Source: a virus
Virus record (IMG/VR): IMGVR_UViG_3300020196_000024
Length of the DNA stretch: 64,000 nt
Reading direction: 5' to 3' (one strand)
Below are positions 30,484 through 31,306 of the stretch, in pieces (position 1 is the first letter of the stretch; each line of letters begins with the position of its first letter). The notes under the pieces are model-generated. The model did not search any database. It saw nothing but the letters and a program-made list of their open reading frames with translations, and had not been told where the DNA came from. The position numbers and the translations under genes are program-made.

Positions 30484-30885
30484 TCATAATTTACCCTCGT
30501 CTCTCATTTCTTGTCGAATCTTACTCGCAGATATATCTCCAACCTCTTGAGGGGGTATATGTTCAATAATGTCATAACCAACACCACGACCGAAATTTAC
30601 AGATTCTATGTCAGGTATAATTACAACTTTTACTTTTTCATCACCAACAAGTTTCCAAAGTTCTTTTTTTATGTTTGCCTCAACCTCTAAAGCACTGAAT
30701 GGATTTTTTTCGTCAGGTTCGATGTCTCTAATACAAATAAGAATATTCTTACCCTCGTTTAACCTTTGATCAATTAACCACCTGTGACCTGAATGCCACG
30801 GCTGCCAACGACCAATAAACATGGAATATTGTTTAGAACCACTATTTTTCAGTTTTGGGTCACCCTCAACGTGTATTTTCCGCAT
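30484..30885 (-). CDS. HxGH-family nucleotidyltransferase, archaeal-NMNAT-like
   Basis: FIGRWQPWHSGH resembles GRFQPFHKGH of archaeal NMN adenylyltransferase, and xPMHRAH of ATP sulfurylase. ICIRDIEPDEKNPFSALE matches the NMNAT second block. Confidence 0.6.
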   Translation of the reverse strand: MRKIHVEGDPKLKNSGSKQYSMFIGRWQPWHSGHRWLIDQRLNEGKNILICIRDIEPDEKNPFSALEVEANIKKELWKLVGDEKVKVVIIPDIESVNFGRGVGYDIIEHIPPQEVGDISASKIRQEMRDEGKL

Positions 30886-31306
30886 ATTTTAATACTTTTG
30901 ACACTGATTCTTCAACATCCTCCTCAGTAGTATCAACACTCAGAAAGTTCTCAGTTGGGGGTTCATAATTTTCAACAAAAAAATCCTCTCTTCCTCTCAG
31001 TTCATTTGTGTGAATGTAAATCTCGACTAAATTAGTCCCCATTTTTTGTTTAAACTTGTCTCTTTGGTCTTTGTAAGGGGACACTAATGATACCACAACA
31101 TCTCTTTTTTTATTATGAAGGTATTCAGAAATTTGTTGTGCTAATTCAATATTTTTTCTTCTCCCTGTTTCAGAATAATCTTTATTTTCGAATAAATTTC
31201 TCAAGTCATCCCCATCGATATGGAAGAAACTTGGTTTTTCCCAAATTATCCTTTCACAAATGGTTGTTTTACCAGACCCTGGTTGTCCTGTAAACCAAAT
31301 AATCAT
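30866..31306 (-). CDS. adenylyl-sulfate (APS) kinase-like P-loop kinase
   Basis: IWFTGQPGSGKTT, DGDDLR, SPYKDQRD and YEPP match CysC blocks (WLTGLSGSGKST, DGDNVR, SPYRADRD, YEPP). Overlaps the next gene by 20 nt. Confidence 0.65.
   Translation of the reverse strand: MIIWFTGQPGSGKTTICERIIWEKPSFFHIDGDDLRNLFENKDYSETGRRKNIELAQQISEYLHNKKRDVVVSLVSPYKDQRDKFKQKMGTNLVEIYIHTNELRGREDFFVENYEPPTENFLSVDTTEEDVEESVSKVLKYAENTR

Follow-up and report, generated by a model that had tools for sequence, protein, structure and literature searches.

A kinase and nucleotidyltransferase gene pair of an uncultured phage as a candidate split PAPS synthase

The question raised by this locus is what an uncultured freshwater phage gains from two overlapping genes, one encoding a homologue of APS kinase and the other a very small nucleotidyltransferase (NTase) of the HxGH superfamily. 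The sequence-only reading had offered two answers, PAPS synthesis for sulfation and NAD salvage. We refer to the whole stretch of viral DNA that was analysed, 64 kb in length, as the window. Both ORFs are present on its minus strand exactly as had been described, in different frames, and the kinase stop and the NTase start share 20 nt, as can be read directly from the sequence:

30866..31306, minus strand: short-lid APS-kinase homologue, 146 aa, proposed to make PAPS from APS by phosphorylation of the 3'-OH
30484..30885, minus strand: minimal NMNAT-derived HxGH NTase, 133 aa, proposed to be a non-canonical sulfate adenylyltransferase
30866..30885, minus strand: kinase/NTase overlap, 20 nt

Database searches return thousands of homologues for each protein, and comparison with viral relatives indicates purifying selection on both genes, the median dN/dS of the kinase being 0.19 and that of the NTase 0.08. 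In most relatives, viral as well as cellular, the two genes either abut or overlap, by 1, 4, 20, 26 or 44 nt. A programmed frameshift joining the two ORFs was considered and rejected, the NTase being in the +1 frame with no slippery site in the 20-nt overlap. Given this absence, and the many junction geometries among relatives, the overlap likely represents translational coupling rather than frameshifting.

Linkage and genomic neighbourhoods of the pair

The pairing of this NTase with an APS kinase spans bacteria, archaea and phages, and relatives were found on at least 582 viral contigs, with lengths of related contigs reaching 155–321 kb. Of 83 viral loci, 82 have the kinase gene immediately upstream of the NTase gene, while in cellular loci, which represent at least 10 phyla, the kinase is adjacent or fused to the NTase in 73 of 80 and fused in 31. 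The search patterns for this genome scan were derived from 14 sequences, a 44-sequence alignment being too diverse. Both domain orders are seen among the cellular fusions and adjacencies, so that the order of kinase then NTase, previously likened to that of a PAPS synthase, is not diagnostic. Among 150 diverse NTase representatives, 17 kinase-NTase and 7 NTase-kinase fusions were counted, plus truncated ones; the APS-kinase domain is the sole recurrent fusion partner in this set, and fusions to Nudix or NR-kinase domains are absent from it. One and the same NTase family partners short-lid and canonical kinases alike, in the same Marinimicrobia context, and the pairing also occurs in non-polysaccharide contexts, for example in MGIII archaea. 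Chromosome OZ243041.1 is one of the complete sequences that carry the module. It is a deeply conserved module and not a phage oddity.

A sulfotransferase is encoded within 8 kb of the module in at least 33 of the 80 cellular loci, with at least four different families represented; for about half of the cellular loci, the detectors used found no sulfotransferase within that distance. Direct operons of sulfotransferase, kinase and NTase are among these (L023, L043 and L048), and the remaining cellular neighbours are nucleotide-sugar and polysaccharide genes, as found in polysaccharide clusters. In related phages (L093, L101 and L117), homologues of the sulfotransferase paralogs of the window (see below) are located immediately upstream of the module. 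The cultured phages Salvo and DLP_6 carry no convincing sulfotransferase near their fused gene. Salvo gp29 is at most a possible candidate, having only a sub-threshold match to Sulfotransfer_4 and no PDB support; the neighbours of the Salvo fusion include MazG and, two genes upstream, a NADAR gene.

No ORF in the 80 loci or in the window carries the motifs of Sat (QxRNPxHxxH, GRDHAG) or the PP-loop motif of CysD. As these searches spanned 8–10 kb to either side in each genome, other parts of the module-bearing genomes, or the host of the phage, may encode a canonical Sat or CysDN. It is conceivable, though on balance unlikely, that the kinase alone serves sulfate activation, using APS from such a canonical host or cellular ATP sulfurylase, and that the NTase is an accessory with a regulatory or scaffolding role, or one that activates a different constituent of the same sulfated glycan. 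That the two domains fuse in either order, and that the genes are neighbours in about 90% of loci from various phyla, phages and MGIII archaea, argues instead for consecutive steps on one metabolite. In addition, the GRxQPxHxGH signature of the NTase is of the adenylyl (NMNAT) type and not of the cytidylyl type.

We favour PAPS synthesis by the pair itself. The context fits the functional class of an ATP sulfurylase, in that the NTase is coupled to an APS kinase, PAPS consumers are encoded close by and the cluster has no second sulfurylase, and the occurrence of the APS-kinase pairing across bacteria and archaea, beside sulfotransferases, suggests that the NTase is an unrecognised kind of ATP sulfurylase.

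Families of the kinase and the nucleotidyltransferase

The kinase groups with CysC and not with gluconate or shikimate kinases, as judged from Pfam, NCBIfam and PDB matches. It scores 57.7 bits against Pfam APS_kinase (PF01583; threshold 21.1, E=1.8e-15), its top PDB sequence matches are all APS kinases, and it directly matches bifunctional PAPS synthase and Sat-CysC fusion proteins. The motifs IWFTGQPGSGKTT, IDGDDLR, SPYKDQRD and YEPP are all present; GQPGSGKTT and I30-D31-G32-D33-D34-L35-R36 align with canonical CysC, and the P-loop, D31-G-D33-x-x-R36, Y44, R49/R50, SPY and YEPP are retained. Both Asp residues of the corresponding LDGDNhR motif are essential for APS-kinase activity (PMC8528679).

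The earlier statement that all APS-kinase blocks are present is nevertheless slightly overstated, since about 18 residues of the lid are missing, the Pfam match is limited to residues 2–101 (profile positions 4–110 of 152), and the score of 65.9 bits against the NCBIfam CysC equivalog (TIGR00455) is far below its cutoff of 138.7. In APS kinases the lid or cap clamps the substrate and has conserved R, K and F residues (PMC13213808). The window kinase has 'LRGREDFFVEN' where CysC has 'RDPKGLYKK...GEIKNFTGI', and the shortened lid keeps an Arg and a Phe, which may correspond to the conserved lid residues. A cellular short-lid homologue (L014) gives a similar value (65.3 bits against the cutoff of 138.7), while all nine full-length partner kinases exceed the cutoff (152–258 bits).

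These assignments bear on a further alternative, which we consider quite unlikely, where the NTase adenylylates some other acceptor (selenate, phosphite, a phospho-metabolite or phosphopantetheine) and the kinase 3'-phosphorylates the AMP conjugate to yield a PAPS analogue or a CoA-like 3'-phospho-nucleotide. By curated equivalog thresholds, the full-length partner kinases belong to CysC and not to CoaE, and on this ground a CoA-synthesis pair (PPAT plus DPCK) was rejected. Also, the recurrent neighbours are sulfotransferases, which use PAPS, and the short-lid kinase shares its NTase family and its Marinimicrobia context with canonical kinases.

The NTase carries the motifs GRWQPWHSGH, ICIRD...NPFSA and ISASKIR. 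These had been judged nearest to archaeal NMN adenylyltransferase, and the profile searches agree, with all scores below cutoff: the best matches are archaeal NMNAT and NadM (24–36 bits against cutoffs of 127–418), including 35.5 against 127 bits and 33.6 against 181 bits for profiles of the archaeal/NadM type (TIGR01527, PRK01153). The score against Pfam CTP_transf_like (20.4) falls just below the cutoff of 21. With its HxGH and ISxTxxR nucleotide-binding motifs, the protein has the Rossmann-like catalytic fold of the HxGH superfamily, as does ATP sulfurylase of the Sat type, and NMNAT is the closest fold. A fold search of the BFVD viral library gave no match at E<=0.001.

The NTase resembles an NMNAT in fold, but it reaches no NMNAT threshold, and some 25 core residues of NMNAT are missing from it, together with the C-terminal helix. 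The NMNAT profile alignment covers its N-terminal half only (positions 2–80 of about 170). Residues 77–109 of MJ0541 (33 aa), a segment bounded by the 'DIE' strand and the ISGT motif which we take to line the NMN pocket, correspond to 8 profile positions in the NTase family; in place of the approximately 25 residues that follow the 'DIE' strand, the family has an invariant GRxVGY loop. It also has R53-D54 where NadM has Gly-Ser, and R53, D54, R100 and Y104 are invariant among its members but not among NMNATs. Even the NTase domains beside the nine full-length kinases score 56 bits or less against NMNAT cutoffs of 127–181.

Neither is the NTase a recognisable Sat. It has no Pfam match to ATP sulfurylase (PF01747) and no profile match to PDB ATP sulfurylases at E<=10, and the sulfate-binding active-site motifs of Sat, QxRNPxHxxH and GRDHAG, are absent. 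The xP(W/M)HxxH block, which the sequence-only reading had taken as an ATP-sulfurylase pattern, is a generic motif of the HxGH superfamily.

The weakest alternative is NAD salvage that counters an NAD-depleting host defence, either in a NadR-like manner (the kinase acting on nicotinamide riboside and the NTase converting NMN to NAD) or in a NadM-like manner, with the NTase aided by a NUDIX gene (24941..25465, PF00293 E=4e-17) 5 kb from the module; such salvage is well known in phages (PMC9503650), archaeal NMNAT, NadM and NadR are nearest to the NTase by fold and HMM comparison, public databases label the family NMNAT, and the Salvo fusion has its NADAR gene, yet we regard this reading as very improbable in view of the missing NMNAT elements, a partner kinase of the CysC family and not of the NadR RNK type, the lack of any Nudix fusion among the 150 representatives, a cellular context of sulfotransferase and polysaccharide genes instead of NAD genes, and the lack of NadV. 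Phage NadM is reported to be associated with NadV and/or a fused Nudix domain, and every phage with NadM is reported to have NadV (PMC9503650), while tblastn with phage NadV found none in the 64-kb window (E<=10) and none in more than 160 related loci (E<=1e-3).

Sulfotransferases and candidate targets in the window

PAPS made by the module would require a consumer, and several genes elsewhere in the window are relevant in this respect:

12349..12999, minus strand: divergent sulfotransferase paralog 1, 216 aa, proposed PAPS consumer
21926..22612, plus strand: divergent sulfotransferase paralog 2, 228 aa (family HMM match 4e-74)
14113..15354, minus strand: family-2 glycosyltransferase (PF00535 E=1e-16)
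15351..16046, minus strand: 2OG-Fe(II) oxygenase, P4H-like (PF13640 E=1.8e-17)
18199..18795, minus strand: second 2OG-Fe(II) oxygenase, P4H-like (PF13640 E=2.9e-11)
32145..33071, minus strand: glycosyltransferase, GT11-like (phrog_2644 'glycosyltransferase' E=6.5e-19; weak PF01531 match)
38804..47659, minus strand: three consecutive collagen-like (G-X-Y repeat) ORFs of 928, 976 and 1048 aa

The presence of two sulfotransferase-like paralogs, already noted from the sequence, is upheld. They align over their full length (BLASTP E=4e-13) and are true paralogs. The two ORFs themselves have no Pfam sulfotransferase match at E<=1, and PHROGs and PDB searches, whether by single sequence or by profile, were uninformative for them; of 21 homologues with 60–73% identity, 15 match Sulfotransfer_1 (best 6.7e-7) and 9 match Sulfotransfer_2 (best 1.4e-6). 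A fold search assigns the sulfotransferase fold, and both ORFs model as sulfotransferases. In the family alignment, invariant R16-T17-A18-x-R20 and R76-N77-P78 (with S84) are found at the places expected for the 5'-PSB and 3'-PB, and putatively bind PAPS.

The collagen-like ORFs contain 146–253 GxyGxyGxy windows each, with 26–31% Gly, and GC is raised to 0.41–0.51 across this stretch. They are candidate targets of hydroxylation, glycosylation and sulfation, and their presence in the window together with P4H-like oxygenases makes the fibres a plausible sulfation target. The GT11-like glycosyltransferase gene is located about 840 nt upstream of the module. DNA matches of the window to cultured phages are short and confined to a DUF3310 gene, and protein similarity is weak.

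A combination of this kind has been predicted for bacterial operons by Iyer et al. (2010), with a hydroxylase, a sulfotransferase, a PAPS-synthetase and collagen-like or tail-collar proteins (PMC2938197). The same parts occur in the window, namely 2OG-Fe(II) oxygenases, sulfotransferases, the PAPS-synthesis module and Gly-X-Y proteins, and by the same operon logic the oxygenase at 15351..16046 is a candidate hydroxylase that would make acceptor hydroxyls. The bacterial operons have conventional PAPS synthetases, whereas here the parts lie scattered across about 35 kb of phage DNA, glycosyltransferases are included and the NTase is non-canonical.

Proposed function and comparison with known systems

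Of the two answers offered at the outset, we prefer PAPS synthesis on the grounds of a CysC-type kinase, the linkage of the NTase to APS kinases, the sulfotransferase neighbours and the lack of NadV; none of the three contrary findings named beforehand was made. The pair probably constitutes a split PAPS synthase, where an NMNAT-derived enzyme makes APS and so feeds the phage's own sulfotransferases. The NTase would perform the ATP-sulfurylase step, for which we propose from its sequence and context the reaction ATP + sulfate -> APS + PPi, and the coupled short-lid kinase would turn APS into PAPS by phosphorylating its 3'-OH, thereby pulling the unfavourable sulfurylase step forward. The two divergent sulfotransferases would then consume PAPS. 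Their likeliest target may be the collagen-like fibre proteins in hydroxylated and/or glycosylated form, whose genes lie about 8 kb from the module, with a host surface glycan as an alternative.

Such a system would resemble metazoan PAPSS1/2, the Sat/APS kinase of Aquifex (PDB 2gks) and CysN/CysC, in that a proposed sulfate-activating adenylyltransferase is fused or adjacent to an APS kinase and supplies sulfotransferases. Both catalytic domains share superfamilies with bifunctional PAPS synthases (HxGH nucleotidyltransferase and P-loop APS kinase). Unlike in those enzymes, the adenylyltransferase is a minimal domain of 112–133 aa from the NMNAT branch that lacks a PUA-like N-domain, and in the window the genes are split, overlapping and phage-encoded, with the kinase lid shorter by about 18 residues. 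The family differs from archaeal NMNAT/NadM (PDB 1f9a, 1ej2, 2qjt) in its scores (34–56 bits against cutoffs of 127–181), and in having an adjacent or fused APS kinase in place of a Nudix fusion or a nearby NadV. In NadR, the kinase precedes the NTase step, has a nucleoside as its substrate and comes from another P-loop family, whereas the partner here is CysC-type by curated thresholds and is found in both domain orders. A counterpart in cultured phages is the 'kinase' of phrog_10255 (Xylella phages Salvo, Sano and Bacata; Xanthomonas/Stenotrophomonas phages; DLP_6), where both domains, each about 34–43% identical to the window proteins, are fused in a protein of about 245 aa. These proteins are annotated just as 'kinase', 'adenylylsulfate kinase' or hypothetical, and their neighbourhoods yielded no convincing sulfotransferase.

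Sulfate activation is generally attributed to two types of enzyme, Sat and CysDN. We see about an even chance that the mini-NTase is a third, unrecognised evolutionary type of ATP sulfurylase beside these, mis-annotated as NMNAT and widespread among bacteria, archaea and phages of marine and freshwater habitats, which together with the short-lid APS kinase gives the phage an autonomous PAPS supply for its own collagen-like fibres or for a host glycan. Our literature search found no report of an NMNAT-like or cytidylyltransferase-like ATP sulfurylase, or of phage sulfation.

If true, the existence of a third, very small sulfurylase derived from NMNAT would change how the capacity for sulfur assimilation and sulfation is deduced from genomes, as some lineages might be scored unable to activate sulfate because their NTase genes are now labelled NMNAT. 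At about 115 aa, such an enzyme would moreover be an attractive tool for regenerating PAPS enzymatically. In conjunction with the P4H-like oxygenases, glycosyltransferases and collagen-like ORFs, the module opens to testing the 2010 prediction (PMC2938197) of hydroxylation followed by sulfation in collagen-like proteins of prokaryotes, and a large lineage of uncultured phages would possess a self-contained sulfation pathway, comprising both PAPS synthesis and sulfotransferases.

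The gene pair and its short-lid kinase

The two minus-strand ORFs of the module lie exactly where the sequence-only reading had placed them, in different frames and with an overlap of 20 nt. The start of the kinase gene is in turn overlapped by 4 nt by a DUF3310 gene, and the following string is co-directional:

31303..31623, minus strand, DUF3310 gene (PF11753, E=7e-15; relatives labelled 'nucleotide kinase' in PHROGs)
30866..31306, minus strand, kinase gene (APS-kinase homolog, 146 aa)
30484..30885, minus strand, NTase gene (HxGH nucleotidyltransferase, 133 aa)
29584..30453, same direction, N6/N4 DNA methyltransferase gene, downstream end of the string

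No close cultured relative was found for this phage of low GC content (about 0.33); an identical NTase with the same gene string recurs on many contigs of freshwater-lake metagenomes. Both genes are under purifying selection, with a median dN/dS against viral relatives of 0.19 (kinase) and 0.08 (NTase). DUF3310 is kept upstream of the module across the phage lineage and is not found in the cellular loci.

The closest solved relatives of the kinase are all APS kinases. The claim that it possesses all blocks of this enzyme holds for the P-loop, the I-D31-G-D33-D-L-R36 motif, the following aromatic and Arg positions, SPY and YEPP, but about 18 lid residues are absent. The two Asp residues of human PAPSS1 that match D31 and D33 are essential for APS-kinase activity (PMC8528679), while in other APS kinases the substrates are clamped by the lid, in which R, K and F are conserved (PMC13213808). 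The missing lid residues account for the divided result of the proposed CysC profile search, where the kinase passes the Pfam APS_kinase threshold (57.7 vs 21.1 bits) but stays below the CysC equivalog cutoff (65.9 vs 138.7 bits). The short-lid form is no phage degenerate, as the same subtype is found in Marinimicrobia and marine group III archaea.

A nucleotidyltransferase related to NMNAT

The NTase (motifs GRWQPWHSGH and ISASKIR) had been considered closest to archaeal NMNAT. Its nearest HMMs are indeed archaeal NMNAT and NadM, but all scores fall below the cutoffs (24–36 bits vs 127–418) and the alignment is limited to the N-terminal half. Against NMNAT, the family profile gives two aligned blocks, and the 33 NMNAT residues past the "DIE" strand shrink to 8 positions in the family, where an invariant G99-R100-x-V-G-Y104 loop replaces this segment; the window NTase is also devoid of the NMNAT C-terminal helix. 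R53(-D54) is invariant in the family, NadM having Gly-Ser there. The suggested ATP-sulfurylase active-site pattern has to be abandoned, as motifs specific for Sat, a canonical ATP sulfurylase, are absent and no ATP sulfurylase relatives were detected by sequence. The NMNAT scores below cutoff, the lost core residues and the lack of Sat motifs lead us to assign the NTase, as judged from sequence, to an NMNAT-derived but clearly distinct family that is neither NMNAT by curated criteria nor Sat.

In three NTase-kinase fusions (P0280, P0327 and L062), the alignment to the bifunctional Sat/CysC profile of NCBIfam (NF004040) begins at residue 43–56, inside the NTase half, and runs from profile positions 302–311 onward, the end of the Sat domain. 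These scoring positions hint at residual similarity between the C-terminal half of the NTase and Sat. Three other homologs (P0308, P0356 and P0359) carry N-terminal extensions of ~180–240 aa with repeated CxxC Zn-ribbon and HNH-like motifs, which may represent a homing-endonuclease insertion or fusion at the NTase locus.

Genomic linkage of the module

An exhaustive search through 1.8 billion cluster representatives retrieved 1141 NTase relatives. Among the best 150 of these, no domain other than an APS kinase recurs as fusion partner; the kinase comes first in 17 proteins and the NTase in 7, with some truncated fusions in addition, and there is no fusion to another kinase type or to Nudix. 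PHROG 10255 already joins both domains in one protein, and a kinase-NTase protein of ~245 aa occurs in cultured Xylella, Xanthomonas and Stenotrophomonas phages. Of 83 viral loci, 82 have the kinase gene immediately upstream of the NTase gene. Scanning one genome per prokaryotic species yielded 124 relatives, many on contigs of 0.2–1 Mb, from Marinimicrobia, Bacteroidota, Verrucomicrobiota, Acidobacteriota, Planctomycetota, Omnitrophota, Patescibacteria and marine archaea. In the 80 loci kept, an APS-kinase homolog is present at 75, and at 73 it is fused (31 cases) or directly adjacent, usually overlapping. All nine full-length partner kinases exceed the curated CysC equivalog cutoff (152–258 bits), and the NTase domains paired with them reach at most 56 bits against NMNAT models. 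The linkage counts and CysC scores argue that the obligate partner of the NTase family is a true APS kinase, with APS as its predicted substrate. One Marinimicrobia SAG (L044) has two convergent NTase copies, 7961..8314 (plus) and 8391..8741 (minus), beside a single canonical APS kinase.

The alternative, an NMNAT that forms an NAD-salvage pair with the NUDIX gene, is difficult to reconcile with these data. The NUDIX gene is real, but it is 5 kb from the module, and Nudix is never fused to the NTase family among the best 150 of 1141 relatives. Only residues 14–86 of the NTase domain of a genuine phage NadM match the window NTase. NadV is reported to be present in every NadM-encoding phage (PMC9503650), whereas a genuine phage NadV as query had no match in the window (E<=10) and none in >160 related loci. 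The only NAD-flavoured association found is a NADAR-domain protein in Xylella phage Salvo (4820..5263, E=3e-25), two genes upstream of the kinase-NTase fusion. In phage DLP_6 (4063..4614), a 2OG-FeII_Oxy_3 oxygenase and a metallophosphoesterase are just upstream of the fusion; no clear sulfotransferase was detected near the fusion in either phage.

Neighbour proteins of the cellular loci were clustered and the clusters compared to Pfam. Sulfotransferases emerged among them: a cluster present in 19 loci matches Sulfotransfer_5 (E=2e-47), another matches Sulfotransfer_3/1 (E=2e-30), and a further protein is again Sulfotransfer_3-like. Also encoded in these loci are UDP-glucose dehydrogenase, NAD-dependent epimerases and dehydratases, DegT, Wzz, a likely group-1 glycosyltransferase and a likely polysaccharide-export protein (assigned without Pfam). 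By five ad-hoc HMMs, a sulfotransferase lies within 8 kb at no fewer than 33 of the 80 loci, and four further Sulfotransfer_3 proteins are immediate neighbours in loci missed by these HMMs. Direct sulfotransferase-kinase-NTase operons exist in Flavobacteriaceae, Sediminibacterium and Ignavibacteria MAGs (L023, L043, L048). As at least four sulfotransferase families occur near the module in different phyla, this is no single inherited synteny. Signature motifs of Sat or CysD were found in no ORF of the 80 loci, which cover 8–10 kb to either side of the module.

In Marinimicrobia (L007–L047), the Sulfotransfer_5 gene and a class-IV aminotransferase (Aminotran_4) each occur in about 19–20 loci; plant 'branched-chain aminotransferase-like' proteins join these two domains. 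In four marine group III/Poseidoniales archaea (L051, L053, L058, L059) the neighbours of the pair are SHMT, SAM synthetase and SAH hydrolase genes instead of polysaccharide genes, which hints at a function in assimilatory sulfur metabolism and the methyl cycle.

Putative sulfation genes of the window and a proposed split PAPS synthase

The two sulfotransferase-like ORFs (12349..12999 and 21926..22612) are paralogs (E=4e-13), as had been proposed, and belong to a small family of 33 homologs confined to this phage lineage. The window copies themselves have no Pfam match, but among 21 family members 15 match Sulfotransfer_1 and 9 Sulfotransfer_2. In three related phages (L093, L101, L117), such genes directly precede the kinase-NTase pair. 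The window further carries two P4H-like 2OG-Fe(II) oxygenases, one GT2 and one GT11-like glycosyltransferase, and, where GC jumps from about 0.33 to 0.41–0.51:

38804..47659, minus strand, three consecutive collagen-like ORFs (928, 976 and 1048 aa) with hundreds of Gly-X-Y triplets

This set of parts equals that of Iyer et al., who predicted for bacteria that collagen-like or tail-fibre proteins are hydroxylated and then sulfated (PMC2938197).

Further genes of the window are:

16753..17337, minus strand, Flavodoxin_2/NQO-like protein
19654..20496, plus strand, DnaJ/BSD2-type Cys-rich zinc-finger protein
22607..23164, minus strand, SPFH/Band_7 protein
25718..26257, minus strand, full-length PduO-type ATP:cob(I)alamin adenosyltransferase (PF01923, E=1e-48)
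26276..27694, minus strand, DHH phosphoesterase-like protein, 472 aa (weak: Pfam E=9e-5; phrog_4771 E=6e-3)

As pAp, a toxic by-product of sulfotransfer, is hydrolysed by some DHH enzymes (NrnA type), the DHH protein may serve the pathway as its clean-up enzyme; a RecJ-like nuclease is just as likely. The PduO-type gene adjoins the DUF192 and NUDIX genes. At 24941..25721, a long minus-strand NUDIX ORF and a long plus-strand ORF with a C-terminal DUF192 overlap extensively; these mechanical ORF starts are over-extended, as gene calls on identical contigs are shorter (139 and 117 aa), divergent and non-overlapping.

Databases name the module proteins "NMN adenylyltransferase", "adenylylsulfate kinase" or "hypothetical protein", and the literature yielded no publication on an NMNAT-like sulfurylase, nor any on such a phage-encoded sulfation pathway. 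From the observed anatomy, family relations, folds, linkage and context of the module we infer each catalytic activity and the sulfation target. A split PAPS synthase is the model with the best support, and we consider its mechanism moderately probable: the NMNAT-derived NTase would adenylylate sulfate, the short-lid APS kinase, probably coupled to it in translation, would turn the resulting APS into PAPS, and phage sulfotransferases would consume PAPS, the probable acceptor being the collagen-like fibres or their glycans. The model is weakened by the lack of Sat-type sulfate-binding motifs in the NTase, by the non-canonical subtype of the window kinase, and by cultured phages that bear the fused gene but have no detectable sulfotransferase. 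The working principle would be that of PAPS synthase, but with a different and much smaller first enzyme.
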